From Thermoanaerobaculia bacterium (lineage in GTDB: Bacteria; Acidobacteriota; Thermoanaerobaculia; Multivoradales; Multivoraceae): a stretch of DNA of 64,000 nt. Within the stretch, counting starts at the first letter, position 1; each line of letters begins with the position of its first letter. The DNA lies in the NCBI GenBank assembly GCA_963666565.1, contig OY762911.1, positions 1,056,001-1,120,000 on the forward strand, in the 5' to 3' direction. This document shows positions 9,910 through 30,276 of the stretch, piece after piece. The notes under the pieces were generated by a model. It searched no databases and had not been told where the DNA came from. It worked only from the letters and a program-made list of their open reading frames with translations. The translations under genes and the position numbers were made by a program.

Positions 9910-10587
9910 ATGGGGAACCCCAGTAGGCGGCACACGCCTGAGTTCAAGAAGTTCGTTGTGCTGGAGGTTCTGCGCGGAGAGCGAACCCAGAAGAGGATCG
10001 CAGCACGCTATGGAGTCCATCCGAGCCAAGTAAGCGAGTGGAAGCGGCAGGCCCTTGATGGGTTGAGTGAGTCGTTCGTGCGGGACGCCAAGGGTCGGCG
10101 GCGGCGGGAGGAAGCGAAGCCTCGGCGGCAGCTTCCACGTGAGAGACGTTACCCTATTCAAGGTCCGTACTCTCTCGAGACGGAGTTGGACGCCGCGAGG
10201 CTCATGGAGCAGCTCTGGCAGGTTCGTAGGGAGTTAGGGGATGACGTCCTGTTCGGCGCGTTCGTACAGGAGTACGTGCGCGTCCTGAAGCCCCTGGAAC
10301 CATCGGAGGCGCTGTTGATGGCGGAAGCATGGGAGTTGGCTAGAGAGCGCCCCGAACTTCGGCGGATTCTTGCGGCTCTGCCGGGAGAGGTTGTAGGCTT
10401 GATAAAGGCCGCGCTGGCTCTTGACCTTGACCTAAGGGGGCTTACGGACGAACAGCTTTCGAGTGTCTTCGCCCGCGCTCCTCGGCTGCGAAAGGGAGTT
10501 CTCAAGAAACTGAAGGCCTCTGTATCCCGGTCCGACAGCAGCGTTGGCGGTGAACGTTTCAAGCCAGTCAGAGTTGAGAAACGGTGA
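9910..10587 (+). CDS. IS3-OrfA-like HTH (HTH_Tnp_1) fused to an unknown helical domain
   Basis: RRHTPEFKKFVVLEVLRGERTQKRIAARYGVHPSQVSEWKRQALDGL. No DDE OrfB follows. Confidence 0.65.
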   Translation: MGNPSRRHTPEFKKFVVLEVLRGERTQKRIAARYGVHPSQVSEWKRQALDGLSESFVRDAKGRRRREEAKPRRQLPRERRYPIQGPYSLETELDAARLMEQLWQVRRELGDDVLFGAFVQEYVRVLKPLEPSEALLMAEAWELARERPELRRILAALPGEVVGLIKAALALDLDLRGLTDEQLSSVFARAPRLRKGVLKKLKASVSRSDSSVGGERFKPVRVEKR

Positions 10588-10636
10588 CGGTGCGGTTCCG
10601 GTCGCGGCTCGCGTCTTGGGGCACGGACGGTTGCTG

Positions 10637-11545
10637 TTACTCGTACAACCTCCCCGTCGCCCTCGCCCTCTCCAACACCGGCTCATAGATCCGCAACGTC
10701 GCCGCATCCACCAACTGGCCCCCCTTGCCTCCAGCCCCGGCCCCCTTCGCCACCGACTCGTTGTACAGGTCCACCATCTTCTGCGCCTGCTTGATCTCCC
10801 TGGGCGACGGCGCGAAGACGTCGTTGGCAAGCGGAATCTGGTTCGGGTGGATGCACCACTTGCCCACGGCGCCGAGGGTGGCGGCCCAGGTGGCCTGCTT
10901 CAGGTAGGCCTTGTCGTTGCGGAAGTCGCCGAAGGGGCCGTCGATGGCGTCGATGCCGGCGGCGCGGCAGGCGGCGATCATGCGGACGCGGTGGGCGGAC
11001 CACATGTCGCCGGGATAGCGGTAGTCCTTGTCGAGTTCGTGGCCGAATCGCATGCCCATGCTGGCGGAGAGGTCGCCGAAGCCGAGGATGAGCGCTTCCA
11101 GGCGCGGCGAGCAGGTGGCGATCGCTTCCACGTTGGCGAGGCCCTCGGCCTCCTCGATCAGCGCCTCGAGGCCGATCCTGCGGTCGAGCCCGAGCTTCTG
11201 CTCCAGGCCGTCGAGCATCGTCTCGAAGAACCAGATGTCGCGCGGCTGCTTGACCTTGGGCAGGATGATGACGTCGAGGTTCTCGCCGGCGCCTTCCACC
11301 ACGCTGATCACGTCGTCCACGGCCCAGCGGGTGGTGTGGTCGTTGACGCGGACGGAGCGCACCTTGCCGGTCCAGTCGAGGTCGTTCAGGCCGTCGATGG
11401 CGATCTGGCGGGCGCCTTCCTTCCTGTCGGGCGCGACGGCGTCTTCCAGGTCGAGGAAGACGAGGTCGGCCTCGCTCGAGGCCGACTTCTCGACCATCCG
11501 GGGGTTGCTGGCCGGCACCGCCAGCTCGGAACGTCTCAGTCGCAT
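10637..11545 (-). CDS. CoA ester lyase (CitE / HpcH-HpaI aldolase-citrate lyase family)
   Basis: MRLRRSELAVPASNP...FLDLEDAVAP...ILPKV...GFGDLSASMG...AIDGPF...GKWCIHPNQI. True start 11545 with RBS AAGGAG. Confidence 0.93.
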   Translation of the reverse strand: MRLRRSELAVPASNPRMVEKSASSEADLVFLDLEDAVAPDRKEGARQIAIDGLNDLDWTGKVRSVRVNDHTTRWAVDDVISVVEGAGENLDVIILPKVKQPRDIWFFETMLDGLEQKLGLDRRIGLEALIEEAEGLANVEAIATCSPRLEALILGFGDLSASMGMRFGHELDKDYRYPGDMWSAHRVRMIAACRAAGIDAIDGPFGDFRNDKAYLKQATWAATLGAVGKWCIHPNQIPLANDVFAPSPREIKQAQKMVDLYNESVAKGAGAGGKGGQLVDAATLRIYEPVLERARATGRLYE

Positions 11546-12849
11546 GGTTGCTTCTCCTTGTCGTCTCCGTCCGGCCCGGCGTGCTGGCCGATGTCGCTCC
11601 CGGCGCTGACCCCGGCCTCGACCCCGGCGCCGATCCCGAACTGAACGAGGATCTCGTCCCGGTGCTCGTCGAGCAGGGGCGCCCGGCACCGCACGCCGGT
11701 CTTCGTCCCGGTGTACTTGATCGGGCAGCCGACGATCCTGACCGGCGCGTTCTCGCCCGGCAGCTCCACTTCGGCGACCATCTCGCGGACCGCGGTGTGG
11801 GGGCTCTCGAAGATGTCTGCCGCGGTCTGCACCGGGCCGCACGGAACCCGGCCGGCGAGCGCCTCGACGATCTCGTCGCGGGTGTGGGCCCCCGTCCACT
11901 TGGAGACGACCGCCTCCACGAACTCCCGGTTCTCGCGGCGCGCCTTGAAGTCCTTCGAGCGCTCGTCTTCCACCAGGTCGGGCCGACCCATCTCCTGGCA
12001 GAGGATCTCCCACTGCGCCGGCAGGGGCGCGGCGATCGCCACGCCGCCGTCCTTCGCGTCGTAGATGCCGAACGGGGACAGGCTGTGGTGGTGCTTGCCG
12101 CGCGGCGGGAGCTGGTGGCGCAGGCTGGAGCCGTAGTTCGCGAACACGGACTCGCACAGCAGGTTGACGCCGTCGACCATCGCGACGTCCATGAACTGGC
12201 CCTCGCCGGTCCGCCGCGCGTGGTGGACCCCGGCGACGACGCCGAGCGCCATCAGCGTGCCGGGAAACAGGTCGCCGACGGAGGCGCCGCCGGGGTAGCC
12301 CCCTCCGGGACGGTCGTCGTCGCCCCGGGGGCCGTTGACGTGGGCGAAGCCGCCCATCGCCTGGGCGACGATGTCGAAGGCGGGCCAGTCGGCGTGGGGG
12401 CTCTCGCCGGTCCGCGGGTCGCCGAAGCCGCGCAGCGCCGCGTAGACGATCCGCGGGTTGCGCTGGCGGATCGTCTCGTAGCCGACGCCGAGGCGGTCCA
12501 TCACGCCGGCGCGCATGTTCTCGAGCACCGCGTCGGCGCGCTCGCACAGGCGGAGGAAGGTCTCGCGGTCGGCCTCGTCCTTCAGGTCGAGCGAGATGCT
12601 GCGCTTGTTCCGGTTGATGCTGCCGAAGTAGCCGCCGAAGTCGCAGCCGCCGTCGACGCCGGCCTTGCCCTCGGCCGGGTGGACGAAGTCCTCGGGGATG
12701 GGCGGCGAGGGGCGGGACATGTCGCCGGTGGGCGGCTCGACCTTGATGACGTCGGCGCCGAGGTCGGCGAGGATGGCCGAGCCGAAGGGGCCGGCGAGCG
12801 CCATCGTGCAGTCGATGATGACGAGGTCGCTGAGGGGGCCGTGGCTCAT
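11536..12849 (-). CDS. Family III CoA-transferase (CaiB/BaiF)
   Basis: LAGPFGSAILADLGADVIKVEPPTGD...NRNKRSISLDLK...PAFDIVAQAMGG...APLLDEHRDEIL. Confidence 0.94.
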   Translation of the reverse strand: MSHGPLSDLVIIDCTMALAGPFGSAILADLGADVIKVEPPTGDMSRPSPPIPEDFVHPAEGKAGVDGGCDFGGYFGSINRNKRSISLDLKDEADRETFLRLCERADAVLENMRAGVMDRLGVGYETIRQRNPRIVYAALRGFGDPRTGESPHADWPAFDIVAQAMGGFAHVNGPRGDDDRPGGGYPGGASVGDLFPGTLMALGVVAGVHHARRTGEGQFMDVAMVDGVNLLCESVFANYGSSLRHQLPPRGKHHHSLSPFGIYDAKDGGVAIAAPLPAQWEILCQEMGRPDLVEDERSKDFKARRENREFVEAVVSKWTGAHTRDEIVEALAGRVPCGPVQTAADIFESPHTAVREMVAEVELPGENAPVRIVGCPIKYTGTKTGVRCRAPLLDEHRDEILVQFGIGAGVEAGVSAGSDIGQHAGPDGDDKEKQPCD

Positions 12850-12908
12850 GGGGCGGGGCCTGGAGTTGGCGCGGCAGGAGCTCCAGAGTCCGGCGCTTTG
12901 CGCCGGAT

Positions 12909-12934
12909 GCCGGCGGGGACGCCGGCGCACCCGG
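12909..12934 (-). repeat. REP-like hairpin, GCCGGCG-stem variant
   Basis: Reverse complement reads GGTGC-GCCGGCG-TCCC-CGCCGGC, intergenic within the operon. Confidence 0.7.
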
Positions 12935-13000
12935 TTTCCGCCGCGAAGGCTCCTGGGTCGGCGGGCGTGGGCCGCGCTGGGGCTTGAGCGAGCGTTGCGG

Positions 13001-13477
13001 TCAACGGGCGCCCCAGTGCGAGCGGCGCTTGATCAGGACTTCGCGTTCGCCTTCGAAGACGATGGTGCCGTCCTGCTTCGTGCCCCAGTGCTTGAAGCGG
13101 ACGATGCCGGCGTCGTCGCGGTCGGCGTCGCGGGTGGCGAGCACCTCGGTGTAGGCGGTCAGGGTGTCGCCGAGGAAGACCGGCGCGCGGAACCGCAGCT
13201 TGTCGAGGCCGAGCTCGGCGAGCGCGTTCTCGGCCGTGTCCTGGGTCGCCAGGCCGATGACGGTGGAGCCGGTGACGAGGCCGAACACGAGGCGCTGGCC
13301 GAAGGGGGAGTTCCGCATGCGGTCTTCGTTGAAGTGGCCGTCGGCGGTGTTCATGACGAGCTTGGTGAGGAGCTGGCTCTCGACCTCCTCGATTGTGGTG
13401 CCGCGGGCGTGCTGCATCTTCTGGCCGGGGGCGAAGTCCTCGAAGTAGGTGGAGGGGGATGTGAGGGCGGTGGTCAT
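13001..13477 (-). CDS. MaoC family dehydratase
   Basis: YFEDFAPGQKMQHARGTTI...FRAPVFLGDTLTAYTEVL. ATGA overlap with the upstream gene. Confidence 0.9.
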   Translation of the reverse strand: MTTALTSPSTYFEDFAPGQKMQHARGTTIEEVESQLLTKLVMNTADGHFNEDRMRNSPFGQRLVFGLVTGSTVIGLATQDTAENALAELGLDKLRFRAPVFLGDTLTAYTEVLATRDADRDDAGIVRFKHWGTKQDGTIVFEGEREVLIKRRSHWGAR

Positions 13478-16599: not shown

Positions 16600-16896
16600 T
16601 CAGACCGTCGCCTGCCGTCGGTAAGGAGCCACGTCGATCAGGTCCTCCCGCTTACGGGCCTGCGTGAGGTCGTAGGTCGCCTGCCGACGCAGCCAGAACT
16701 CGGCATTGGACCAGCCCGCCTTCTCCAGCCGGATGGCCATCTCGGGCGAGATCGCCGCGTGGCCATTCAAGACCCGCGACAGCGTGTGCCGGGCAACGCC
16801 CAGCACTTTCGCCGCAGCGGTCACGTTCAGGCCGAGCGGCTCCAGGCAGTTCTCACGGATGCTATGGCCGGGATGGGGAAGGTTGATCATCGCCAT
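16600..16896 (-). CDS. higA: HigA family antitoxin (orphan)
   Basis: [71 protein letters not shown]. No HigB gene upstream. Confidence 0.9.
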
Positions 16897-17113
16897 GTTG
16901 CCGTCCTTCGCCGCTCTTGAGCCGGCTGTACTCCCGATTCCACTCGGAGAGCGACTCGGGCGCCGGAAGCGGCGCCATCGCCACGAGCCTGTCGACCGCG
17001 TCCAGTTGACGCCGCCGCGTGTCTGGCGCCACGCAGACCTTCTCGACGGCTGCATCGCGCTTCTGATCGATGTCGCCCACTTCAGGTTCCTCCCACGGTC
17101 CGGCCGATGTCAC
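16862..17113 (-). other. Short ORF, possibly an antitoxin remnant
   Basis: 83-aa ORF occupying the position where HigB would be. [21 protein letters not shown] resembles antitoxin tails. Confidence 0.35.
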
Positions 17114-17122
17114 AGGAGAGCG

Positions 17123-20100
17123 TCAACTCGAACCGAACCGCGTAGCGACGTACTTCTCGGCGTCATCGACTCCGAGCCGCACCGTCCCCGGCCCGCTCCG
17201 CACATACAGATCCCCGCCCTCCGCCTTCTCCATCCCCTTCCACCGAAGATACACCGGCTCCGGGCTCCTCTGGCAACTCACGAGGCACACCGTCTTCCCC
17301 TCCACGATCTGCGTCTCCGGATCGATGCAGGTCCCCGCCCGGTCGCCCAAGCCGTTCCGCACCACCTGGGCAAGGTGCCGCATGAACTTGTCGTCGCTCT
17401 CCAGCCGGTCGTGGTCGATGCCGAGTACCTGCCTCTCGTCATCCACCCCGATCAAGAGGTCGCCGCCGTCGGTGTTGAGGAAGGCCGCGATGGTCTTGAG
17501 CGCCGCGTGGGTGACGTGCCTGTCGTCCTTGCGGTTCTCCTTCAGACTCCAACGCAGGCTGGACTTGAACTCCAGCGTCTTCGACTCCTGGAGCTTCAGC
17601 AGTTCCTCGGCTCGCCGGTGCCGGCTGATGTAGTCGTCGAAGAGGAGGTTCTTGATCGCCCGGCCGAACTCGGGGTCGTCTGTGATGCGCTTGTAGAGGT
17701 CGAAGTTGGTCTCGACGATCTCCTGGATCTTGTCCTCGACCTTCGGGTCGAAGGTCAGGCGCACGTTCTCGCGCGTGTTGACGCGGGCGCTCGCGGTCAG
17801 GCCCGGGTCCTGGTCGAGGGCGGAGCGGATCTGCTCGAGCGTCAGGCGGTGTTCGTCGCCGAGGTTCAGGCCGAAGCGTTCGTTCAGATCCTCGATGATC
17901 CGGGAGAGCGCCTCCATCTGTTCCCCGCCGGCGCCGCCTTCGGGCTTGCTTCCCGCGGGCTTGAGCGGCTGGACTTGGCGTTCCAGCGGGATCCGGCCGC
18001 GGCTCGTTCGCTGGATGCGGAACGACTCCATGTCGATGTTCTGCTGCACCTCGACCGGCAGCGCCTCCCGGCCGACGGACAGGAGGCGGCGCAGATGTCT
18101 GGCGAACTGGTAGAGCTTCTCCAGGTCGGCGTCCGCGAACGTCAGCACCTGGGAGAGGAAGGCGTAGAGGCGGACATAGTCGGTGAGCTGGCCGACGAAG
18201 TCCCGCCCCTCTTCGGCGCCCAGGTCGGCGAAGCGTTGCCGGGACGGTTCCAGCGCCGCGTAGAGCCGATCCTGCGTCGCGTCCGGGCCGAAGTACGCCA
18301 GCGCGAAGGTCTCCACGTCGGCCTCCCCGAACACGCCGAAGTCGAGCAGCCGTCCCTGGACCTCGTAGAGCAGGTTCGGGTCGGTCTCCTCGGACAGCAG
18401 CGTGGTCTCGTAGTACGGCTCGAACGCCTTCCCGATCTCGTCGGCCTCGTTGGCGAAGTCGAGCACCATCGCGCCGTCCTTGCCGGGGTGGGTGCGGTTC
18501 AGCCGGGACAGCGTCTGGACCGCGTTCACGCCGCCGAGCTTCTTGTCGACGTACATCGTGTGGAGCAGCGGCTGGTCGAAGCCGGTCTGGAACTTGTTGG
18601 CGACCACCAGGAAGCGGTACTCCGGCTTCTCGAACTCGGCGGCCGTCTGCCGCTCGCCGATCGCCCGCTCCTGGCCGGCCGAGTTCATCCCGGACTCGGT
18701 GTAGGACTGGCCGCCGTCCCTGACCGTGCCGGAGAACGCGACGAGCGCCTTCCAGGGACGCCCCTTCTCCCGCAGATAGCGGTCGAGGGCGAGCCGGGTG
18801 CGCACAGCGTGCAGGCGCGAGCGCGTGACGATCATCGCCTTGGCGCGGCCGCCGATCTCGTGCGCGACGAGTTCGGCGAAGTGCTCCACGCAGATGGCGA
18901 CCTTCTCGCCGATGGCGTGCGAGTGCAGTTCGACGAAAGACCGAAGCAGATGCTCGGCCTTCCGCTTGTCGTAGCGCGGGTCGTCCTCGATCTTCTTCTT
19001 CAGCCGCCAGTAGGCCTTGTAGGTCGTGTAGCTGCCGAGCACGTCGAGGATGAACCCTTCCTCGATCGCCTGGCGCATGCTGTAGAGGTGGAACGGCCTG
19101 AAGCTGCCGTCCGGCTGCTTCTCGCCGAAGAGTTCGAGGGTCTTGGGCTTCGGCGTCGCCGTGAAGGCGAACGTGGAGAGGTTCGGCAGCCGTCCGCGTT
19201 GGCGGATCGCCTCGTGGATCCGGTCTTCGAGTTCTTCTTCGGGTGTCGCCGCGCCGGCCTCTTCCTTCTCGGCCGCCTCCAGGCTGCGCGCGTCGAGCAC
19301 CGCCTTGAGGCTCTTCGTGCTCTCGCCGGACTGCGAGGAGTGCGCCTCGTCCGCGATCACGGCGAAGCGCTTGCCGGGAAGCTGGCCGATCTCGTCGGCG
19401 ATGACCGGGAACTTCTGCAGCGTGGTGACGATGATCGTCCGGCCGCCTTCCAGGGCCTCGCGGAGCTGGCGCGACGTGTGCTGGATGTTCTCGACCACGC
19501 CGAGGGTCTGCTCGAACTGCCGGACGGCGCTCTGGAGCTGGCGGTCGAGCACGCGCCGGTCGGTCACGACGACGACGGAGTCGAACACGCGCCGGTCTTC
19601 GTGGTCGTGCAGCATCGCGAGCTGGTGGGCGAGCCAGGCGATGGTGTAGCTCTTGCCGCTGCCGGCCGAGTGCTGGATGAGGTAGCGCTCGCCGGGGCCG
19701 TGGTTGCGCGCGTGGCGCACCAGCCGGCGCACGCAGTCGAGTTGCTGGTAGCGCGGGAAGATCAGGAACCGCTTGCCGGTCCTGCGGCCGCGGTCGTCCG
19801 TCTCGATGACTTCGTGGACGAACTGGCGAACGAGGTCGAGGACGCTGTCGCGAGCCCAGATCCGCTCCCACAGGTAGTCGGACGGATAGCCGTTGCGCGT
19901 GGGCGGCACCGGCGGATTCCCGGCGCCGCCGCGGTTGCCGCGGTTGAACGGCAGGAATCGCGTCTTCGGCCCGGCAAGCTGGGCGGTGACGAAGACCTGC
20001 TCCGGGTCGACCGCGAAGTGGGCGAGGCAACGGCCGTAGGCGAACAGCGGTTCGCGCGGGTCGCGGTCGTCCTTGTACTGCCGGATGGCGTCGTCCACGT

Positions 20101-20662
20101 TCTGGCCCTTCAACGGGTTCTTGAGCTCCGCCGTGAAGATGGGGATGCCGTTCAGGAAGATCCCGAGGTCGACGCTCCGGCTGGCGGTGCGTTCGCTGAA
20201 GTGGAGTTGACGCGCTACCGCGAAGAGGTTGGCCCCGTGCAGGCGCTGGAGTTCCTCGTTCAGCCCGCTCGCCGGCTGGAAGTACGCGAGGCGGAACCTG
20301 CAGCCCGAATCCCTGACGCCGTTTCGCAGCACGTCGAGCGCGCCCCGGCGGCCGATCTCGCGCGAGAGCCGGCCGAGGAAGCGCGGCTTGACGTCCGCGC
20401 CGTAGTGCTGCCGGAGCTTGGCCCACTCCGTCGGCTGCGTGGCGAGGAGGAAGTCGAGCACGTCGGCCGGGATCAGGCAGAGGTCGCGGTCGTAGTCGTC
20501 GTGGCGGCGCTTGTGGTAGCCGCCGGGCAGAGGGTCGTCGCCGAAGGAGACGGCGGGTTCGCGGAGTTCGCCGGCGTCCTCCGGGTAGGCGTCCGGGCCG
20601 CCGCGCAGGAGGGCGCGCTCGATGGTCGCCTCGAAGTTGCGTTCGCTGGTGTCGGGGGTCAC
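17123..20662 (-). CDS. hsdR: Type I restriction endonuclease subunit R with C-terminal Schlafen/AlbA_2 domain
   Basis: Nuclease motif VDLGIFLNGIPIFTAELKN; Walker A HSAGSGKS; IADEAH; FTATP; QTGFDQP; QTLSRLNR. C-terminal QESKTLEFKSS...TIAAFLNTDGGDLLIGVDD...LYVRSGPGT (about 17123-17610). Confidence 0.93.
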   Translation of the reverse strand: MTPDTSERNFEATIERALLRGGPDAYPEDAGELREPAVSFGDDPLPGGYHKRRHDDYDRDLCLIPADVLDFLLATQPTEWAKLRQHYGADVKPRFLGRLSREIGRRGALDVLRNGVRDSGCRFRLAYFQPASGLNEELQRLHGANLFAVARQLHFSERTASRSVDLGIFLNGIPIFTAELKNPLKGQNVDDAIRQYKDDRDPREPLFAYGRCLAHFAVDPEQVFVTAQLAGPKTRFLPFNRGNRGGAGNPPVPPTRNGYPSDYLWERIWARDSVLDLVRQFVHEVIETDDRGRRTGKRFLIFPRYQQLDCVRRLVRHARNHGPGERYLIQHSAGSGKSYTIAWLAHQLAMLHDHEDRRVFDSVVVVTDRRVLDRQLQSAVRQFEQTLGVVENIQHTSRQLREALEGGRTIIVTTLQKFPVIADEIGQLPGKRFAVIADEAHSSQSGESTKSLKAVLDARSLEAAEKEEAGAATPEEELEDRIHEAIRQRGRLPNLSTFAFTATPKPKTLELFGEKQPDGSFRPFHLYSMRQAIEEGFILDVLGSYTTYKAYWRLKKKIEDDPRYDKRKAEHLLRSFVELHSHAIGEKVAICVEHFAELVAHEIGGRAKAMIVTRSRLHAVRTRLALDRYLREKGRPWKALVAFSGTVRDGGQSYTESGMNSAGQERAIGERQTAAEFEKPEYRFLVVANKFQTGFDQPLLHTMYVDKKLGGVNAVQTLSRLNRTHPGKDGAMVLDFANEADEIGKAFEPYYETTLLSEETDPNLLYEVQGRLLDFGVFGEADVETFALAYFGPDATQDRLYAALEPSRQRFADLGAEEGRDFVGQLTDYVRLYAFLSQVLTFADADLEKLYQFARHLRRLLSVGREALPVEVQQNIDMESFRIQRTSRGRIPLERQVQPLKPAGSKPEGGAGGEQMEALSRIIEDLNERFGLNLGDEHRLTLEQIRSALDQDPGLTASARVNTRENVRLTFDPKVEDKIQEIVETNFDLYKRITDDPEFGRAIKNLLFDDYISRHRRAEELLKLQESKTLEFKSSLRWSLKENRKDDRHVTHAALKTIAAFLNTDGGDLLIGVDDERQVLGIDHDRLESDDKFMRHLAQVVRNGLGDRAGTCIDPETQIVEGKTVCLVSCQRSPEPVYLRWKGMEKAEGGDLYVRSGPGTVRLGVDDAEKYVATRFGSS

Positions 20663-20735
20663 GCTGGCGCCGTCCTTGGGTGGTTGGCTTGCCTTGGCGT
20701 TGCGGAGGGAGCGACGCGGGCGGGTCGCGGGTCGA

Positions 20736-20794
20736 TGTCACAGCTCGGTGTCACAGCTTGTCGCAGCTCGGTGTCACAGCTCGTCATAGCTCGG
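20736..20794. repeat. Short tandem repeats of GTCACAGCT(CGGT)
   Basis: Five imperfect copies: TGTCACAGCTCGG TGTCACAGCT TGTCGCAGCTCGG TGTCACAGCTC GTCATAGCTCGG. Confidence 0.8.
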
Positions 20795-20795
20795 C

Positions 20796-20915
20796 TCATT
20801 CGGTAGACCGGCCCTCGGAGAGCGTCGCGGCCTTGAGGAAGCCGCGGGCCCGCTCGATTGGCTTCGGGTCGGAGGCGATCTGATTGGGGATGGTGAACGG
20901 TGGCTCGAAGCTCAT
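20796..20915 (-). pseudogene. Fic family protein N-terminal remnant
   Basis: ATGA overlap with the hsdS stop. MSFEPPFTIPNQIASDPKPIERARGFLKAATLSEG* resembles the 'F.P.FTI...IERARGFL.AA.LS' start of Fic proteins. Confidence 0.6.
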
Positions 20916-22252
20916 TCGGACGCTGCTTCTCGGACGTCGATCTTGCCGGTGACTGCCGCCGAGATCAGGGCGGTCCGGAGTTCCTGGAGGTGGTCCACGG
21001 CCTCGCGGATCTTCGCAACAAGACAGTCGATCTCCTGAGTGGCTTGGTCGAGCTGCGTCACGATGCGGCTCTGCTCTTCCAGTGGAATCTCCGGGACCAC
21101 GAGGCGCGCCAGCGTCGACGTGTTGTAGTGGACTTGGATGGCACCTACAGACTGCTCCGCAGCCTGCGAGATTGCGGCCTGTGAATTGAGGTAGTAGTAC
21201 ACGAACTTCGGCAGGACCAACTCCGAACGCCGCACAATGAGCAGGTCGATGCAGTTGGCTCCATCTAGTGATTCAGGAACTACGGTCGCCGTGCCGGCTT
21301 GACCCGTGCGAACCACGACTACGTCGCCCGCGAAAATCTTCGACTTTCGGTGGAGTTCGTTCGCGTCCTCACTGATGAACACGAGGTTGGCGGTGTCGAC
21401 CGCACCACGAGACACGTTGAGTGCGCGGAGACAAGGAACGCCGTCATCCACGTAGTACTTTGAGGGCGTAACGACGATGCCCACGGTAGTTTCTGGCGTC
21501 ACGTGCTTGAGCCTCTTGACCTCCCAGTGCGCCGGGATCTCGCCCAGCCACTCGACGCCGGAGTCCTTCACGCGCACGTTGGGGTCGAGGCCCCGTGTCA
21601 CGGCGCGGGTGATGAGTGCGGTGCGTTTCTCCTGAAGCAGTTCGATCAGTCGCTCCTTCCTCTCTACTAGCGCGTTCAGTTTCGTCGCCTCATCGTCGAG
21701 GAAACTGACGATGGCCCGTTGTTCGCCCTGCGGTGGAACGGGAAGGCTGTTCGTGCTGACGTGATCGGTACTGACGCGTGGCATTCTGGCCCCGTACGTC
21801 AGCGAATGGAGCCAGTGGACGTGAGAGACGTTCAGCAGGCAGTACATCAGGTAGCTCTGGAGGTAGCCAGGAGTTGGCCGAAGAGCGAGAATCTCACTGG
21901 TACAGACGCCATCGAAGTCCGGACGAGCGGCCTTCGCAAGGTAGGGCCGGAGCTTTCCGAGTAGAACATCCCCTGCCGCGAAAGGGGACACCACACTGTC
22001 TATCTTCTCGGGTTGGTTCTCCTGCAGCAGCCGGCCGGTCCACGGTTCCACATGCTCGAGTCCAACATAGACAGCATCGTGGGGCTTGGTGTTCAGCTTG
22101 CCGGTGCGTGTTGGCGCGACGAACTTGATCCGCTTCGTTCTCCAGTGCGCCGGTATCTCGCCGAGCCACTCGACGCCGGATTCCTTGTACTTGCAGTATC
22201 GCGGAAGCCGTGCAGGCTGTGCTTCCTCCTTTCGATCAGGTGCTTCGTTCAT
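20912..22252 (-). CDS. hsdS: Type I R-M specificity subunit S
   Basis: Two TRDs separated by conserved repeats K(E/D)SGVEWLGEIPAHW, PPQGEQRAIV and ALISAAVTGKIDVR. The TRDs have lower GC than the flanks. Confidence 0.95.
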   Translation of the reverse strand: MNEAPDRKEEAQPARLPRYCKYKESGVEWLGEIPAHWRTKRIKFVAPTRTGKLNTKPHDAVYVGLEHVEPWTGRLLQENQPEKIDSVVSPFAAGDVLLGKLRPYLAKAARPDFDGVCTSEILALRPTPGYLQSYLMYCLLNVSHVHWLHSLTYGARMPRVSTDHVSTNSLPVPPQGEQRAIVSFLDDEATKLNALVERKERLIELLQEKRTALITRAVTRGLDPNVRVKDSGVEWLGEIPAHWEVKRLKHVTPETTVGIVVTPSKYYVDDGVPCLRALNVSRGAVDTANLVFISEDANELHRKSKIFAGDVVVVRTGQAGTATVVPESLDGANCIDLLIVRRSELVLPKFVYYYLNSQAAISQAAEQSVGAIQVHYNTSTLARLVVPEIPLEEQSRIVTQLDQATQEIDCLVAKIREAVDHLQELRTALISAAVTGKIDVREAASE

Positions 22253-22300: not shown

Positions 22301-22927
22301 TCATTCCCACAGGATCTCTAGAACGGGACCGATGAGCGACTTCGCTCGGCAGACTTCTGCGGCGCGCCAGATTTGATCCACGGTTGCTTTCCGGTCGCGC
22401 AGTGCGTCGCGTAGTGCCTCGATCGCAACGTCTCTGCCGACCAGTCTGCGGAAGCGAAAACAGTCCACGACCGTGCGGGCCGGGCTCGTGATTCGTGCAG
22501 GAACGCCCTGGAAGGTCGCGCGCTCGACGCCGTAGCGCAGCGAGGCGGCGGAGAACCGAACTACGTGCACGGGCAGTTCGGGGAGCTTGGGCGAGCGCGC
22601 CTTGTGCGGGATGGCGATCCACACCTGCCACGGAAGCTGGGTGCCGAGTTCGTGGACGCTCAGGGCGGTCAGGAGGCAGACGATGGCATCGGGAACACGC
22701 GCGCACACGGCGCCGACGGTGTAGTGCTCGGTGAGTTCGGCCTCCGTGATGCGATAGAGGCCACGCGCCTCGCGTTCGACCGAGCCGTCCTCCAGCAGGC
22801 GCCGCAGTTCACGGGAGCTGATGCCCAACTCGGCCGCGTCGCGCGAACGGAAGAACGTCCTGGTGCCGAGGCCCTGCAAGTCTCGGCCAGGTGGCTCTGG
22901 TCGGCGAGACGAATTGTCGGCAGCCAT
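22301..22927 (-). CDS. Type IV TA antitoxin AbiEi family regulator (no AbiEii toxin adjacent)
   Basis: wHTH FRSRDAAELGISSRELRRLLEDGSVEREARGLY, then ICLLTALSVHELGTQLPWQVWIAI and ITSPARTVVDCFRFR. Confidence 0.88.
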   Translation of the reverse strand: MAADNSSRRPEPPGRDLQGLGTRTFFRSRDAAELGISSRELRRLLEDGSVEREARGLYRITEAELTEHYTVGAVCARVPDAIVCLLTALSVHELGTQLPWQVWIAIPHKARSPKLPELPVHVVRFSAASLRYGVERATFQGVPARITSPARTVVDCFRFRRLVGRDVAIEALRDALRDRKATVDQIWRAAEVCRAKSLIGPVLEILWE

Positions 22928-23225: not shown

Positions 23226-26200
23226 ATGGACGCTATCGCATCAACTCCGCTCGCGCCGGAGTGGAAGGAACGGCTGAACCTATCGCTCCGCCGTGCGCCG
23301 GACTTCTACGAGAAGTCGGACGAGATCGGGGACGTGTCCCATGCAGGTGCGCTTCGTACGACTCTCGACGGCTTGGGGGCGTCCGCGGTCTTCTGTGTCC
23401 AGGACGTCCCGACTGCCGTCGTCGTCTCGGTCGACCAGTACGTTCCCGAAGACGCCGCCAAGCTCCAGGCGGCGCTCTGGAATCAGGGGCTCGCAAGTTT
23501 GCTCCTCTTCGTTTCCGAGGACACTGTTCGGGTGTTTTCTCTGGCCCGGACCCCTCGCCGGTGCACGGACGACGAGTTCCACTCCCATTGCCTAGTCCAG
23601 ACGTTGAACGCTGCGACCGACGCGCTGGCGCTTGGGAACCTGCTTTACAGCGCCGAGTCCGGCCGGTATTGGGAGGCATATGCCCAGTACTTCAGGCCAG
23701 AAGAGCGAGTGGATCGCGTTCTCCTGAACAACTTGACGGAGTCGGACAGACTTCTTCGGCAGGAGGGTTTACCCGGAGACGCGTCGCAGGCGCTGCTGCT
23801 CCAGGCGATGTTCGTTGCCTATCTTGAGGACCGGGAGATCATCGGCGAGGAGTACATCCGGGCTGCTACGAACGAGGGGGCGACCGATTTCAACACACCG
23901 CTGTCCACAGGGGACGTTGGATCATTGGAGCGTCTCTTTGTGACTCTGCGGCGAGACTTTAACGGCGACCTGTTCATTGCGCCGTGCTCCTTCGACGCGA
24001 ACGACCCCGGTCCGAGTCTAGAGGCATCGCACTTGGAGATTCTCGCCCGCTTCCGTTCCGGCCGGGAGGAGATGCATGGGTCGGGCGGGCAGTACCGCCT
24101 TTGGCCATACAACTTCAAGTACATACCGGTCGAACTGATCAGCGCCGTTCACGACCGATTCCTGAGCGAGCGCGGAGATGCTGACCGGCGTCTTCGTGGT
24201 GCCTACTACACACCGATGCTCCTCGCCGACGTAGTGGTGTCTCACATGTGGGAGAGGTTGCCGGCCGAAGCCAAGGAAAGTGGGACTTTCCTGGACCCGG
24301 CTTGTGGGTCTGGCATCTTCTTGGTGCGACTGTTCCAGCGCCTGTGCGAGTTCCGTCGGGCCAGCCGATCCGAAGCGAGGATTCCTTGGCGTGCCCTGCT
24401 CGACATTCTGATGAGGTTGCGCGGCTGGGACCTGGACGGCGGTGCAGTGCGGGTAGCGGTTTTCTCCTTGTACGTGGCTCTCCTTGAGGAGGTTACTCCG
24501 CCCGATATTCAGAGACTGATGAAGCGCGGTCGGGTGCTCCCCGAGCTCCACGGAAAGACGCTGAGGTGCACCGACTTCTTCTCGGTCGCGCCTGACGCTG
24601 CTGCGGTGGACGCCGTGGTTGGCAACCCGCCCTGGTCGAGCCGCCACGGCGCGGGTCATTCCGCCCTTGAATGGTGTCGTCAAGAGAGACTTCCGATGCC
24701 GAGCGGCGAGCAGGCTTGGTCGTTCGTCTGGAAGTCGCTGCGCCACTTGCGGAAGGGTGGCTTGGTGGCGTTGCTTCTGCCGGCAATGGGTTTCCTGCAC
24801 AATCACGCCAAGAAGGCGGTAGAGGCGCGCAAGCGCCTGATCCGCGAGGCGCGGCTCTCTAGCGTTGTGAACTTCGCGGACATGCGATTTCAGTTGTTCG
24901 ACGGTGCCTCAAGGCCTACCTCGCTCCTTATCTTGGGCGGACTTGCTTCACAGGATTCAGACTACCGGTTCGACTACTTGACACCGAAGGCCGACCCGAA
25001 CCTGAAGGCCCGGCGCTTGATTACCGTCAGTAGTGCGGACCGGTGTCGGCTCGAGGCTCGCATGGTTGAGGCCGACCCGTCTGTGTTCAAGAAGCGTCTT
25101 TGGATGAATGAGCCTGAGAGCCGGCTGTTCAACTATTTGTCGCAGCTCCCTCGCCTGCGCGATCTCGTCGAGCAGTTTGGGAAGCTGTCGCGCCGAAAGG
25201 GACTCGGTCCGGACCAGTGGGTTATCGGACAGGGCTTTCAGCCGGCTCGCACAGAGGAGCGCGACGACGTTGGCTATGAGGCCAAGCACAGCAGCGCCGT
25301 CGCCACGATTCCGTATCTTCCGATCAAGCGGTTTCGGGTCCTGGCCGAGGCAGGAGTGGACTTGCAGCCTTGGAAGGGCGCGATGGTGCGTCGGCATGGT
25401 TTCCGAGGAGGATTCGAGGGACCACGTGTAGTCGTTCCCCGTGGCGTCGCCATCGGTGAAGCGGGACGACGACTGAGGGCGGCCTATGTCGAGGCACCGC
25501 TGACCTTTCAGGACATCATTCAGGCGATTGTGGTTCCCCCGGGGCAGGAGCAGCGGGGCATGCTGCTGACGGCTCTGCTCAACAGCAAGCTGATGCTGTG
25601 GTTTGCGTTCCACGGAACTTCATCGTTTGGTGCGGATCGGCCGGAGGTGCAACAGGCGGAACTACTGCGCTTGCCGTTCCCTGAGCCAGACGACATGCCC
25701 GACCCGGAGCGGTCGTGGTCGGCTGCTGAGGCGCTGGTGGGCAAGATCAAGGGGAGGCTCCAAGCGGCCGCAGCAACTGGAAGGACCGGTGCCGGGCAAT
25801 GTGATGTCCTTGAAGAGATCGACCGCTTGGCTCTCGAGTACTTCTGTCTTTCCGAGGAGGACCGAATCGTCGTCGACGACACGGTGGATCATGTGATCCC
25901 GGCTGTTCAACCTAGCAGGGGCAGCTTTCCTGCTTTGTGGGGACCTTCGACCGAATCGGACCGTCGTGAGTACGCCCGTATCTTGGTCGGCAGCTTGGCG
26001 GAGCACTTCGAAGGCGGTCGCTCAATCGGAGTGCGTTTGATAGCACGCAGTGAGGATTTGGCCGTGCTACGCCTGTCGCTGCGAGATACTCCGGTTGCGT
26101 TCGACTACAGCGAGGACGAGAACGCCTCGGTGGCGTCCGCCGTGTCGGGTCTTGCGGAGGCTGTTCGGCAGCGCCTACCGGCCAACCTCCACGCGGCTCC

Positions 26201-26345
26201 AGACTTCAGGGTCTTTGTGGGCCGCGAGCTGTTTCTCGTAAAGCCGGTCGGAAGGCGGTTCTGGCTGCGGTCGCGGGCGCTGGCCGATGTCAGAGCAATC
26301 GCGCTAGATCTTCACGTGGCCTCTGGCCGTGACGCGCCGTTCTGA
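23226..26345 (+). CDS. Large N6-adenine DNA methyltransferase (Type IIG/Eco57I-like architecture with C-terminal TRD)
   Basis: IPVELISAV, GAYYTP, FLDPACGSGIFL (motif I), VVGNPPW (motif IV), TaqI_C-like LLNSKL...LLRLPFP. Lower-GC codon usage. Confidence 0.88.
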   Translation: MDAIASTPLAPEWKERLNLSLRRAPDFYEKSDEIGDVSHAGALRTTLDGLGASAVFCVQDVPTAVVVSVDQYVPEDAAKLQAALWNQGLASLLLFVSEDTVRVFSLARTPRRCTDDEFHSHCLVQTLNAATDALALGNLLYSAESGRYWEAYAQYFRPEERVDRVLLNNLTESDRLLRQEGLPGDASQALLLQAMFVAYLEDREIIGEEYIRAATNEGATDFNTPLSTGDVGSLERLFVTLRRDFNGDLFIAPCSFDANDPGPSLEASHLEILARFRSGREEMHGSGGQYRLWPYNFKYIPVELISAVHDRFLSERGDADRRLRGAYYTPMLLADVVVSHMWERLPAEAKESGTFLDPACGSGIFLVRLFQRLCEFRRASRSEARIPWRALLDILMRLRGWDLDGGAVRVAVFSLYVALLEEVTPPDIQRLMKRGRVLPELHGKTLRCTDFFSVAPDAAAVDAVVGNPPWSSRHGAGHSALEWCRQERLPMPSGEQAWSFVWKSLRHLRKGGLVALLLPAMGFLHNHAKKAVEARKRLIREARLSSVVNFADMRFQLFDGASRPTSLLILGGLASQDSDYRFDYLTPKADPNLKARRLITVSSADRCRLEARMVEADPSVFKKRLWMNEPESRLFNYLSQLPRLRDLVEQFGKLSRRKGLGPDQWVIGQGFQPARTEERDDVGYEAKHSSAVATIPYLPIKRFRVLAEAGVDLQPWKGAMVRRHGFRGGFEGPRVVVPRGVAIGEAGRRLRAAYVEAPLTFQDIIQAIVVPPGQEQRGMLLTALLNSKLMLWFAFHGTSSFGADRPEVQQAELLRLPFPEPDDMPDPERSWSAAEALVGKIKGRLQAAAATGRTGAGQCDVLEEIDRLALEYFCLSEEDRIVVDDTVDHVIPAVQPSRGSFPALWGPSTESDRREYARILVGSLAEHFEGGRSIGVRLIARSEDLAVLRLSLRDTPVAFDYSEDENASVASAVSGLAEAVRQRLPANLHAAPDFRVFVGRELFLVKPVGRRFWLRSRALADVRAIALDLHVASGRDAPF

Positions 26346-26355
26346 GTCGAGTTCC

Positions 26356-26991
26356 ATGACATCTGGCGATCCCACCGCGTGGTTGGGAAGATTCAGGTCG
26401 TTGGACAGTCTCTTCCTGGCGCGCGTCGTCGCGTTGTGGCCAACGTGTCTCGAGCGCCTCCCTCCTGACGCCGATGAAGATACAATTACGATGACTTTGG
26501 TGAGTCTTCTTTGGCGTGATGCTGGTGCCCGACGTTGGTTCAACCAGGTCGAATTCCACTTCGAGCCGTTCGGATACACGCCGGACGGAACGATGTACAG
26601 CTTGGGAGAGATCGATATGGCCGTGATCCTCGGTCAGGATCGCGACGTGTATCTTGCGTACGAGTGCAAGCGCTTGAACGTCCTTCGTCGCGACGGTAGA
26701 AGGTCTCTCGCGACGGAGTACGTAAGGCAGGGGCTGGCTCGCTTCGTTCGAAGCCAGTACTCGGAGAACTTGCCGGTAGGGTGCATGCTCGGCTATGTCG
26801 GTGACGGCGATGTTGAGCACGCGGCCGGAAAGGTCCGAGAGAGAATCGTGGCGCTTCGCGGTGAGATCGCGCTCACTGAGGGGCCGGAATCGGATGTGGC
26901 GATCGGGCTAGCGACCCGGTTCTACAGCCGACACCACCGCGGATCGGATGGCAGCGAGATAGAGATCCGGCACGCGCTGTTGCCGATGTGA
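26356..26991 (+). CDS. Putative stand-alone PD-(D/E)XK nuclease
   Basis: EDTIT...GEIDM...LAYECKRL...YVRQGLARFVRSQY...GCMLGYV. Starts 10 nt after the MTase stop. Confidence 0.7.
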   Translation: MTSGDPTAWLGRFRSLDSLFLARVVALWPTCLERLPPDADEDTITMTLVSLLWRDAGARRWFNQVEFHFEPFGYTPDGTMYSLGEIDMAVILGQDRDVYLAYECKRLNVLRRDGRRSLATEYVRQGLARFVRSQYSENLPVGCMLGYVGDGDVEHAAGKVRERIVALRGEIALTEGPESDVAIGLATRFYSRHHRGSDGSEIEIRHALLPM

Positions 26992-27034: not shown

Positions 27035-29149
27035 TCAAGTGCCCATCTCCCCCAACATCTCCACGATCTCCCTCTCCACCCGCCGGATGTCCGCCTCGAT
27101 CTCCTCCAACGGACGCGGCGGCCGGTACTCGTAGAAGTACCGGTTGAAGTTGATCTCGTAGCCCACCAGCCCGACTTCGCCGTCCTGCGGGTCCCGGCGG
27201 TTCTCGTCGATCCAGGCGTCGGGGACGTGCGGCGTCACTTCGCGCTGGAAGAAAACGTCGACGCTCTCGGCGAGCGGCACGTTCTCCGTGTCGCGGAGTT
27301 GCGGGTCGGGTTCGGGGCGGCCCTTCCGGTCCCGGCAGGGCTCGGCCTCGGCGTTGCGCTCCGACAGGCCGGTGAGCACGGACTTCCGGAGCGGCGCGGG
27401 CAGCTTGACCTCAGCCCGCCGCAGCGCGCCGTCGAGTTCGGCCTCGAACTTCGCCCGGTCGAGGAAGAGGCGGTCGGGCAGGCCCCGCAGCGCGCCGCGG
27501 ATCGCCTCCTGCCGCTCACGGCCCGCCGCCTCGTCCTTCGCCCTGGCCGCGCTGTCCCGCTTGCGGGACCTGGCGAGGTTGGCGAAGGCGCGCACCTCGT
27601 CGAGGCGGGCGATGCGCTCGGGGCTGGCCTGGAAGTCGAGCCGCAGCGGCCGTTCGACGGTGATCTTGCGGAAGCCGAACTGCGTCGTCGGGTAGACGCG
27701 GCTGACGACGGCTTCGCGCTCCTCGCCGTCCTCGACGACGGTGCGGGTCGCGCCGTCCTCGTACTCCCGGAGCAGCCGCAGGATGTCTTCCTTCCGCTCG
27801 AACGGGATCTCCCGGCGCTTGGCGCCCAGGCTCTTGCGGAGCAGAACCCAGAACGACGTGGCGTCGATGAGCTGGACCTTGCCGCGGCGCTCGGGCCGCT
27901 TCCGGTTCGTGAGCACCCAGACGTAGGTGGCGATGCCGGTGTTGTAGAAGAGCTGCTCCGGCAGGGCGATGAGCGCCTCGAGCAGGTCGTTCTCCAGGAT
28001 GAAGCGGCGGATCTCGCTTTCGCCGCTGCCGGCGTCGCCGGTGAAGAGGGGCGAGCCGTTCATGATGATCGCGATGCGCGATCCGCCCTGCGCCGGCGCC
28101 TTGGCGTGCGCCAGCATGTGGAGCAGGAACAGGAGCTGGCCGTCGCTGATCCGCGGCAGGCCCGGCGCGAAGCGGCCGGCCGCGCCCCGGTCGTGCTCGG
28201 CCTGCACCGAGCTCCGGTCGCGCTTCCAGTCCTTGCCGTAGGGCGGATTGGCGATCATGTAGTCGAATCCGGCGCCCGCGTGCCGGTCTTTAGACAGGGT
28301 GCTCCCGTAGCCGATCTTCTCCGCGTCGAGCCCGTCCGCCGACTTCATGAACAGGTCGGACTTGCAGATGGCATAGGTCTCCGGGTTCACTTCCTGACCG
28401 AAGAGGTGGACGTCGGCGTTGGGGTTCACGGCCTCGCCCCGGCTCTCGCCCTCGCGCGTCTCGCCGAGGACGACGTGCTCCTTGGCGATGGTCAGCATGC
28501 CGCCGGAGCCGCAGCACGGGTCGTACACGCTGAGCACCAGGCCCTTCGTGCGCAGCCGCTCCTCGTCTCCGGCGAGCAGCAGGTCCACCATGAGATGCAC
28601 CACGTCGCGGGGCGTGAAGTGCTCGCCGGGGTTCTCGTTGAGCGCCTCGTTGAACTTGCGGATGAGCTCCTCGAAGATCGTGCCCATCGTGAAGTTGTCG
28701 ACCGCGTCGGGATGCAGGTTCACCCTTGGGTCGCCGAACCGCTGCATGACCTGGAACAGCAACCCCGACTCGTCGAGCTTGGAGATCGTGTTGTCGAAGT
28801 CGAACATGTCCAGCACTTCGCGCATGTTGGGGCTGAACCCGGCGATGTAGTTGCGGAGGTTCTGGGCGAGGTGCGGCGCGTCGGCCAGCAGCTTCTCGAA
28901 GTCGTAGCGCGACGTGTTGTAGAAGGCGTAGCCGGAGGCGCCCCGCAGCAGCCGATCGGGATTGGCGAGCTTGTCCCGATACTGCGCCTGGACCTCCAGC
29001 ACCTTATCCTTGGTGGGGGCCAGCACGCAGTCGAGCCGGCGCAGCACGGTGAGCGGCAGGATCACGTCCTGGTACTTCCCGCGCTTGAAGGTGTCGCGGA
29101 TCAGGTCGGCGACGCTCCAGAGGAAGCTGACGATCTGGCTGTGGTTCAT
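27035..29149 (-). CDS. hsdM: Type I R-M methyltransferase subunit M
   Basis: FLWSVADLIRD...VILPLTVLRRLDC, GEHFTPRDVV, YDPCCGSGGML, IANPPYG, LFYNTGIATY, GYEINFNRYFY. Confidence 0.96.
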   Translation of the reverse strand: MNHSQIVSFLWSVADLIRDTFKRGKYQDVILPLTVLRRLDCVLAPTKDKVLEVQAQYRDKLANPDRLLRGASGYAFYNTSRYDFEKLLADAPHLAQNLRNYIAGFSPNMREVLDMFDFDNTISKLDESGLLFQVMQRFGDPRVNLHPDAVDNFTMGTIFEELIRKFNEALNENPGEHFTPRDVVHLMVDLLLAGDEERLRTKGLVLSVYDPCCGSGGMLTIAKEHVVLGETREGESRGEAVNPNADVHLFGQEVNPETYAICKSDLFMKSADGLDAEKIGYGSTLSKDRHAGAGFDYMIANPPYGKDWKRDRSSVQAEHDRGAAGRFAPGLPRISDGQLLFLLHMLAHAKAPAQGGSRIAIIMNGSPLFTGDAGSGESEIRRFILENDLLEALIALPEQLFYNTGIATYVWVLTNRKRPERRGKVQLIDATSFWVLLRKSLGAKRREIPFERKEDILRLLREYEDGATRTVVEDGEEREAVVSRVYPTTQFGFRKITVERPLRLDFQASPERIARLDEVRAFANLARSRKRDSAARAKDEAAGRERQEAIRGALRGLPDRLFLDRAKFEAELDGALRRAEVKLPAPLRKSVLTGLSERNAEAEPCRDRKGRPEPDPQLRDTENVPLAESVDVFFQREVTPHVPDAWIDENRRDPQDGEVGLVGYEINFNRYFYEYRPPRPLEEIEADIRRVEREIVEMLGEMGT

Positions 29150-29350
29150 GGCCGGCCGGCGTGGTAGCGCCTTCGGAGCCGCGCGAAGACGTCGGCCGCC
29201 GGCTGGGCCTGACCGGCTTCGATCTGGCGGTCACCCAGCTCAAGGAGCTTGAGCAGCGCAAGCGTTTCCGGCCGCTTCTCGGTCCCTTTCGGCTTGTGGG
29301 GTTTCGGCGATGACAAGGTCTCCTCCTCGCTGGGCCTAAGATAGTCCATG
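29146..29350 (-). pseudogene. Phd/YefM antitoxin C-terminal remnant coupled to the hsdM start
   Basis: ETLALLKLLELGDRQIEAGQAQPAADVFARLR is the typical Phd C-terminal half. The N-terminal DNA-binding part is absent. ATGA overlap with hsdM. Confidence 0.6.
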
Positions 29351-29384
29351 CCGGGCTCGTACTGCCGGTGAACGAGCCACGAAG

Positions 29385-29594
29385 ATGAAGAGGAAGCCGA
29401 TGGCCAAGGTGGACGGCGAGGCATCGCTCAGAGAGGTGCCGGTGGAGAGCGATCCATCGTTCGCGTCCCGGTGGAGAGGCGGGTTCCGGGACTCACGACG
29501 AGACGATGCCCGGTACAAGGCGCTCGCCTGCAAGTACCTCGACGGTGGCGAGCCACTTGAGCCTCCTCCGGCTGCGAGCGACCCACGACTCTGA
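29385..29594 (+). pseudogene. Internally deleted RHH antitoxin (DUF6364-like)
   Basis: MKRKPMAKVDGE|ASLREV...PSFASRWRGGFR...DDARYKALACKYL retains the start and tail of the family but lacks the central helices. Confidence 0.5.
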
Positions 29595-29611: not shown

Positions 29612-30022
29612 TCAGCGGGGTTCCAGGAGGGCCAGGTCGATCTCCCGGAAGTCTCGAGTGTTCAGCGTCGCCAGGGAGAAACCGCGACTCTTGGCCGTGC
29701 CTGCGATCTGCGAGTCCGCCAGGCTCATGGGCGCTCCCTTCAGCCGTCGCAGGGCGCGGAGCCTGGCGCTCTCGTGGGCGGCGTCCAGGTCGAATGGGAC
29801 GATGCGGTCCGAGAAGGCATCTACGATCCGGGCAAAGACGTGCGTCAGACGCAGCCGCTTTCGCCCGCGTGGCAGCAGTTCTATGCCGAAACTGATCTCG
29901 TCCACGGTGACGGCGGAGACGTACAGGCTCGAAGGGGCATGGCTGTCCAGCCAACTCATCACTCGCTTGTCCGGTTCGACACGCATGGCCTCTGAGAGGA
30001 CATTGGTGTCCAGGAGGATCAC
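29612..30022 (-). CDS. vapC: Type II TA toxin VapC (PIN domain)
   Basis: MILLDTNVLSEAMR...SAVTVDEI...ADSQIAGTA...LATLNTRDF. Confidence 0.95.
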   Translation of the reverse strand: MILLDTNVLSEAMRVEPDKRVMSWLDSHAPSSLYVSAVTVDEISFGIELLPRGRKRLRLTHVFARIVDAFSDRIVPFDLDAAHESARLRALRRLKGAPMSLADSQIAGTAKSRGFSLATLNTRDFREIDLALLEPR

Positions 30023-30276
30023 GTCGAATCGTCCTCGCCGTAGTCGGGCGATGTGAAGTCGATCGGGTCGTCCACTTCGCGTGCCGGCAGGTCGAGATCG
30101 AAGCCATCGCCGCCGACGATCCGGCGGATCATTGCCCCGACCGGCTCCTCGTCCACAACCGCGCCTCGGAGGATGCGCCGAACGGTCTCCTCCAAGGACA
30201 GCGACTCCCGTTCCGCGCGAATCTTCAGGCGATGGACGATCTCACTGTCCAGGCGACGTACACTCAGGTTTGCCAT
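30019..30276 (-). CDS. FitA-like ribbon-helix-helix antitoxin
   Basis: MANLSVRRLDSEIVHRLKIRAERESLSLEETVRRIL. GTGA overlap with vapC. Confidence 0.9.
   Translation of the reverse strand: MANLSVRRLDSEIVHRLKIRAERESLSLEETVRRILRGAVVDEEPVGAMIRRIVGGDGFDLDLPAREVDDPIDFTSPDYGEDDST

Follow-up and report, generated by a model that had tools for sequence, protein, structure and literature searches.

A two-gene module of a Type IIG-like N6-adenine methylase and a separate PD-(D/E)XK nuclease: a candidate two-subunit restriction-modification system

The two-gene module

A pair of adjacent genes was analysed in a 64,000-nucleotide stretch of DNA (the window) from a Thermoanaerobaculia bacterium of the Acidobacteriota (GenBank assembly GCA_963666565.1, contig OY762911.1, positions 1,056,001 to 1,120,000 of the forward strand). 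The large-subunit gene (23226..26345, + strand) encodes, from its ATG, a 1039-residue Type IIG-like N6-adenine methyltransferase (methylase) with a recognition domain. The small-subunit gene (26356..26991, + strand), which starts after a spacing of 10 nucleotides between the two open reading frames (ORFs), encodes a 211-residue PD-(D/E)XK nuclease with the motif residues E41, D87 and E103-x-K105. Directly observed are the order of the domains, a catalytic motif that is lost from the large subunit and intact in the small one, and the strict pairing of the two genes. The module is widespread and tightly coupled, and it is a variant of restriction-modification (R-M), not a new category. It has apparently not been described so far. 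Judging from sequences and models, the chances are about even that the pair forms a two-subunit R-M system in which the nuclease would bind, and would be active through, the methylase.

The large subunit and its N-terminal nuclease-fold domain

The large protein consists of a nuclease-fold domain, a connector, an N6-methyltransferase, a recognition domain, and an extra C-terminal domain, in this order. It matches the PADLOC model REase_MTase_IIG PDLC03623 over amino acids (aa) 50–1026 (E 5e-64) and the Pfam families N6_Mtase and Eco57I; its top Foldseek structures are BpuSI, MmeI, CamA, and PglX, and searches of solved-structure sequences gave only weak matches for the methylase. The predicted model has a mean predicted local distance difference test score (pLDDT) of 67 and a predicted template modelling score (pTM) of 0.52, is poor at aa 455–626, and is aligned by VIA with DrdV over residues 7–870. 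An alternative in-frame GTG lies upstream at 23070; homologues begin at the ATG.

The helical connector (23703..24185, + strand; about aa 160–320), similar to the HsdM N-terminus or the Type IIG linker, is mostly helical in the model, and the VIA alignments with HsdM and MmeI structures start at aa 157–168. Methyltransferase motifs I to IV (24294..24635, + strand) fall in invariant columns, DPACGSG (aa 357–363) and NPPW (aa 467–470) being unchanged in 72 and in 47 aligned sequences. The target recognition domain (25113..25865, + strand; about aa 630–880) aligns with HsdS structures at residues 633–876 (Z 9.4). The extra C-terminal alpha/beta domain (25893..26330, + strand; about aa 890–1035) is not assigned to a family: it has no Pfam or PADLOC match, its nearest named Atlas cluster, DUF7008 at 0.87, is a lead only, and no VIA match extends beyond model residue 897, which is weak evidence in the case of a 1039-residue model. 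Its KP..R.W....AL.D motif is conserved in most distant homologues.

The N-terminal domain (23226..23675, + strand; aa 1–150) deserves special attention. Modelling supports its identification as a restriction-endonuclease fold devoid of the catalytic D and (D/E)xK and kept under purifying selection. Over aa 1–110, the model has pLDDT values of 69–87 per block, and four VIA matches are limited to the N-terminus: 9y1l (Z 6.6, root-mean-square deviation (rmsd) 3.7, 112 residues aligned), BsaWI (Z 6.2), TT1808 (Z 5.8), and HsdR of EcoR124I (Z 5.6). These scores are middling, yet the four matches agree with each other and with the domain order of DrdV. No column within aa 30–130 reaches 50% lysine in 72 or in 71 aligned sequences, and in 19 distant members at least 10 acidic residues occur in only four columns, while no column holds as many as 8 lysines. 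The hairpin D-x8-P-x4-ExK of the HsdR encoded in the window was placed by eye on S53...P62...V67-S-V69 of the domain, and the lack of a lysine holds regardless of the register chosen. In six hhalign comparisons, with shallow profiles, the N-terminal domain was matched neither to HsdR nor to the nuclease, and the C-terminal domain was likewise unmatched (probability ≤0.2%). The median ratio of nonsynonymous to synonymous substitution rates (dN/dS) in the N-terminal domain is 0.059 (214 non-independent pairs, dS near saturation), and by this measure selection on it is as strong as on the remainder of the methylase.

A preliminary description of this DNA, made from the letters alone, had seen no nuclease motif in the N-terminal region of the methylase, and this is borne out: the restriction fold is there, and the catalytic residues are not. 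The large protein is thus Type IIG-like in layout, with the N6-methylase, the recognition domain, and the N-terminal nuclease fold expected of Type IIG/IIL enzymes in a single chain, but it fails as a Type IIG enzyme on the catalytic motif, since the PD-(D/E)XK residues required of such an N-terminus are missing.

The small subunit

The model of the small protein is of high quality (pLDDT 92, pTM 0.89), and it supports a nuclease of PD-(D/E)XK fold whose motif is intact, E ... D ... (D/E)xK being carried by a helix (41–54) and two strands (86–91 and 99–106). The best VIA folds are BglII (Z 7.8, rmsd 3.8, 135 residues aligned), BstYI (7.6), and OkrAI (7.1), followed by Card1, SwaI, NucC, and BamHI at Z 6.3–6.6; no match reaches Z 8, and Foldseek returned nothing at E 0.001. 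E41, D87, E103, and K105 are invariant in all 87 nuclease sequences compared, i.e., the query and 86 near-full-length matches picked from 150 listed, and the median dN/dS is 0.10. The nuclease-like motifs pointed out in the preliminary description are therefore set in a restriction-endonuclease core fold.

Profile libraries are almost silent on this protein. The window nuclease has no PADLOC or Pfam match and a single chance-level NCBIfam one; among the 87 homologues, one has a weak PADLOC match to Cas4, and three have single unrelated Pfam matches. The nuclease profile found no match among solved-structure sequences. At E 0.001 the family has as many as 1243 clusters (50% identity), and at 1e-10 it has 472; one of its clades goes under the label 'Fis family transcriptional regulator'.

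Pairing, distribution and co-divergence

Methylase and nuclease are encoded by separate genes, as in Type IIP R-M systems, and these genes occur together. A scan of GTDB genomes with the first 340 residues of the methylase confirmed 318 stretches, the best 80 of which, all at least 52% identical, were analysed (individual loci are denoted below by L numbers). The nuclease gene lies directly downstream of the methylase in 72/80; in seven of the other eight loci the sequence breaks off at or close to a contig edge, and the eighth, L017, is without the nuclease. Start and stop codons overlap by 1 nucleotide in 58 of 73 pairs. Further, 68 plasmid records have a methylase match, and in all 18 plasmid loci drawn from them for examination (down to 22% identity, Bacillota included) a match to the nuclease profile follows the methylase (E from 3e-77 to 2e-11, searched among 19 sequences). 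In the reverse direction, all three plasmid matches of the window nuclease abut a methylase. Two distant nucleases matched 16 and 2 plasmid records, and the five whole-nuclease loci examined from these (L004, L006, L007, L008, and L100) each have a methylase, whole or broken, next to the nuclease; L099 holds a fragment of the nuclease and no methylase match. The co-occurrence of homologous pairs across genomes, proposed earlier as a check, has thus been established, and it extends across phyla.

The two partners diverge together: their pairwise distances correlate (r 0.94), and the methylase tree reproduces 18 of the 25 supported splits of the nuclease tree. Genomes of Acidobacteriota are the nearest named relatives, and the pair is also carried on conjugative plasmids of culturable Alphaproteobacteria. 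Mameliella alba (plasmid pKUB112) and Bradyrhizobium elkanii (pBel61) are among the culturable carriers, and a Sphingomonas locus is another. On plasmids, the neighbours of the pair include TIR, SIR2, Shedu, AbiH, and AbiE genes, integrases, and relaxases. No match to either gene was found in phage records, and two distant homologues used as queries found no DNA match in E. coli genomes. A natural fusion of the pair was looked for and rejected, on weak evidence: among 7999 candidates, two matches were longer, and both are partial joins.

In 51 of the 80 GTDB loci, the methylase is preceded by a gene homologous to the upstream gene of L001 and L002, which itself has no Pfam match; the gene at this position in other clades is MerR-, XRE- or ribbon-helix-helix-like by weak matches or annotation. 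The window holds no remnant of such a regulator, and its clade lacks it.

Several individual loci show unusual arrangements. In L017, a distant complete pair (3417-7150) lies 3 kb upstream of the close methylase (9824-13279), which has no nuclease and whose reading frame continues past the usual stop. Other large N6-methylase genes adjoin the pair in L032 (5914-9522), L053 (5496-7277), L057 (13939-18171), L075 (13759-17295), and L001 (11054-15184). On Pseudosulfitobacter plasmids (L100, 3592-5657; 12 records), the methylase is reduced to its C-terminal half beside a whole nuclease, the latter being annotated as a 'Fis family transcriptional regulator'. On plasmid pRSB223 (L006, 5992-9686), a split methylase and a whole nuclease directly follow class 1 integron cassettes.

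A possible division of labour between the subunits

The module may be envisaged as a mobile, two-subunit derivative of a Type IIG enzyme. The large subunit would read a DNA site through its recognition domain and mark the host copies of this site with N6-methyladenine. Where phage or plasmid DNA presents the site unmarked, the large subunit would bring in the small nuclease, most likely via the dead nuclease domain and the connector; the nuclease, inactive by itself, would then cut near the site. In many hosts the operon is probably under the control of a helix-turn-helix gene located upstream, which the clade of the window does not have. DrdV is reported to dock additional subunits through an interface between endonuclease domains (10.1101/2021.01.06.425610), and by analogy a dead copy of the nuclease would be a plausible dock. 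The specific proposal of an unrecognised and widespread R-M subtype, in which the dead domain of a Type IIG-derived methylase-specificity subunit docks a separate and otherwise silent nuclease, we would rate at slightly less than an even chance.

The main rival, a serious one even if on balance rather unlikely, is an ordinary two-gene Type II system: an autonomous, dimeric BglII/BamHI-like Type IIP enzyme with its own site, accompanied by an oversized cognate methylase that descends from Type IIG enzymes and retains vestigial domains. The structures closest in fold to the nuclease are indeed Type IIP dimers of equal size, MunI and XhoI are the closest of the named Atlas clusters (0.76–0.77, a lead only), and the regulator upstream of the pair in 51/80 loci is reminiscent of C proteins, whose role we take in part from general knowledge; co-divergence of the partners would be expected here too. 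What speaks against it comes in the first place from damaged loci. In L006, L061, L090, and L100, a broken or half-deleted methylase stands beside a nuclease whose frame is whole and includes E, D, and ExK, which argues against an autonomous enzyme, since such an enzyme should be lethal there. Both genes are damaged in L010 and L081. Secondly, the nuclease does not follow the drift of the recognition domain. Between the window and the near-identical locus L009, the recognition region (aa 625–770) is the part that differs most, being 62% identical, whereas the N-terminus of the methylase is 99% and the nuclease 92% identical; for L021 and L022, the values are 70% for the recognition region and 89% for the nuclease. 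For 105 of 124 branches (67 unique pairs), the branch lengths of the nuclease covary most with those of aa 1–150 (rho 0.31) and of the connector (0.29), and little with those of aa 621–770 (0.09) and the adjacent C-terminus (0.03). Thirdly, about 300 additional residues are maintained in the methylase under selection, and a single nuclease family partners methylases spanning 21% to 88% identity.

A number of observations weigh against a methylase-dependent nuclease docked on a dead domain. Damage of the reverse kind, on the nuclease side, occurs in L017, L020, and L033, and the nucleases beside broken methylases may simply be unexpressed. The recognition domain is barely more variable than the C-terminus across the whole set, and the covariation signal is weak, the same statistic between regions of the methylase itself ranging from 0.01 to 0.36. 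The methylase tree contradicts five of the 25 supported nuclease splits. The register of catalytic residues in the dead domain depends on a placement by eye, with no hhalign match to HsdR, and in both size and closest folds (BglII, BstYI, OkrAI, and BamHI) the nuclease resembles autonomous Type IIP enzymes.

It is distinctly less probable that the large subunit is a guarded methylase, which keeps the nuclease inactive until a phage DNA mimic or methylase inhibitor frees it for non-specific DNA degradation and abortive infection. The presence of the effectors NucC, Card1, and Can2 among the fold matches of the nuclease (Z 5.2–6.6) would suit such a role, as would the conserved non-catalytic surfaces, which are compatible with regulation, and the structural neighbour PglX/BrxX, solved bound to Ocr (the role of Ocr is in part general knowledge). 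However, loss of the methylase should then release a toxin, yet four such loci exist, and no sensor domain was found.

That the large protein is a one-protein Type IIG enzyme, as the PADLOC label has it, which cuts via a non-canonical N-terminal site and is assisted by the small gene as an accessory second-strand or backup nuclease, seems very improbable: the full-length match to the REase_MTase_IIG models and an invariant ESGR motif with R161/D163 in the close clade are in its favour, but there is no conserved lysine, no acidic column is conserved across the 19 distant members, and the ESGR residues, located at the domain's end, are variable among distant homologues.

PrrC works with or guards the Type I system EcoprrI, and the preliminary description had taken the position of the pair inside a Type I operon as a sign of similar cargo. 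Of the 80 GTDB loci, L009 alone has the pair nested as in the window. In L011, at the same chromosomal spot, the genes run hsdM-abiEi-abiEii-hsdS-hsdR and the pair lies outside this run, past hsdR; in L046, a distant hsdM-like gene is close by. In 77/80 loci, no gene similar to the hsd genes of the window was found (at least 20 kb of sequence was available for 54/80), and in most plasmid loci no Type I genes are annotated in the stretch shown. The scarcity of hsd linkage and the gene order in L011 indicate that the pair has moved within a defence hotspot, and its position inside the Type I operon is incidental to the module. The idea of a cargo working with or guarding the Type I system, which the nesting in the window and L009 and the linkage to the same operon in L011 had favoured, is accordingly the least probable of all, with the pair outside the operon in L011 and 77 loci showing no similar hsd genes.

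Relation to known systems

DrdV serves as a reference for the layout of the large subunit (10.1101/2021.01.06.425610). DrdV, BpuSI, and MmeI share with it the order of nuclease fold, helical connector, N6-methylase, and recognition domain, as well as a length of about 1030 aa. Unlike these enzymes, the large subunit lacks an N-terminal catalytic motif, has about 150 extra C-terminal residues, and is accompanied by an obligate separate nuclease gene downstream. The PADLOC models REase_MTase_IIG PDLC03623 and PDLC03603 represent the large-subunit family (831 bits for L004, 391 for L089, and 214 for the window). They are labelled as single-protein enzymes, and the partner nuclease has no PADLOC model (0/5 matched, besides the Cas4 match mentioned above). 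The gamma-class M.BseCI and M.TaqI have a methylase core and recognition domain like those of the large subunit, and BglII, BstYI, OkrAI, and BamHI are similar to the small protein in fold and size. Type IIP-associated methylases measure 380–580 aa in the structures listed and have no nuclease-fold domain; unlike in Type IIP pairs, both partners co-diverge here as a single family pair.

In BREX (PglX/BrxX) and ARMADA (ArmB), a large non-cutting methylase is reported to be needed for both restriction and modification (PMC12707154; 10.1101/2025.09.15.676423). PglX/BrxX is a structural neighbour of the large subunit and aligns only from model residue 161, i.e., without the nuclease-fold domain. 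In contrast to BREX and ARMADA, ATPases, helicases, and PglZ do not travel with the pair: such genes of BREX, DISARM, ARMADA or MADS are absent around the window pair and are not shared among the annotated plasmid loci. The scores of the large protein against NCBIfam PglX and MAD2 are far below the cut-offs. Ambrosia is reported as a five-gene system of an XRE regulator, an N6-methylase, a two-component pair, and an HNH nuclease (10.1101/2025.09.30.679545). It likewise combines a regulator, a methylase, and a separate nuclease in one operon, but differs in the HNH fold of the nuclease, the extra kinase and receiver genes, and the number of genes.

The preliminary description could not match the pair to a named system, and this still holds after PADLOC 2.0, Pfam, and NCBIfam were scanned for known systems. 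No description of the pair was found in the full-text literature, a search of main texts with supplements (e.g., the DefensePredictor candidate tables) and most subscription papers outside its scope; the passages covered from PMC10853773, PMC12707154, PMC13092281, PMC11090510, 10.1101/2025.09.15.676423, and 10.1101/2025.09.30.679545 do not describe it.

Genomic context in the window

On the minus strand, the pair is surrounded by a run of hsdM (27035..29149; PADLOC MTase_I, 1e-265), an orphan abiEi antitoxin gene (22301..22927; PADLOC, 3.6e-69), hsdS (20912..22252; PADLOC Specificity_I, 3e-113), and hsdR (17123..20662; PADLOC and Pfam), the hsd identities being based on PADLOC and Pfam. The two antisense ORFs between hsdM and hsdS and their motifs are as previously noted; abiEi, between the pair and hsdS, had been missed. 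In the window and L009 abiEi is orphaned, abiEii being absent, while L011 retains abiEi-abiEii within the hsd operon (19209-20821, - strand). The lower-GC codons attributed to the pair are real (GC content at third codon positions, GC3, of 0.73 for the methylase and 0.71 for the nuclease), but they are not specific to it, as the block also spans abiEi (0.77) and hsdS (0.73); hsdM, hsdR, and three nearby host genes have GC3 values of 0.93–0.96. A pattern search of the window found no sigma-70 promoter or terminator at either end of the pair, and no repeat marking the insertion ends of the module was found there.

In the window, HsdR ends in a Schlafen/AlbA_2 domain (aa 1026-1162, E 2e-18), and so does the HsdR of L011 (13890-17474, - strand); this domain may be an additional effector joined to the restriction subunit of the Type I system. 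The gap between hsdS and hsdR (20723-20915) contains a 39-codon remnant that looks like the beginning of an 82-aa ORF of L011, which we take to be Fic-like (DUF4172 match only at E 0.18); it also contains, at 20723-20781, a short repeat in three tandem copies. Toxin-antitoxin genes flank the island, where an HTH_3 antitoxin-like gene (16600-16920), a 92-aa gene without a family (29146-29424), and a FitA-like/PIN pair (29612-30276) are located, all on the minus strand.

Significance

Should the proposed dependence of the nuclease on the methylase be true, many supposed one-gene Type IIG enzymes would represent one half of a two-subunit, ATP-independent system, in which the cut site is dictated by a swappable recognition domain. 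The module would then bridge fused Type IIG enzymes, Type II systems of two separate genes, and systems of the BREX kind, where a methylase senses for a separate effector. The finding would correct two PADLOC Type IIG models and give a name to an unannotated nuclease family, and a nuclease dependent on its methylase partner for activity could become a retargetable tool.

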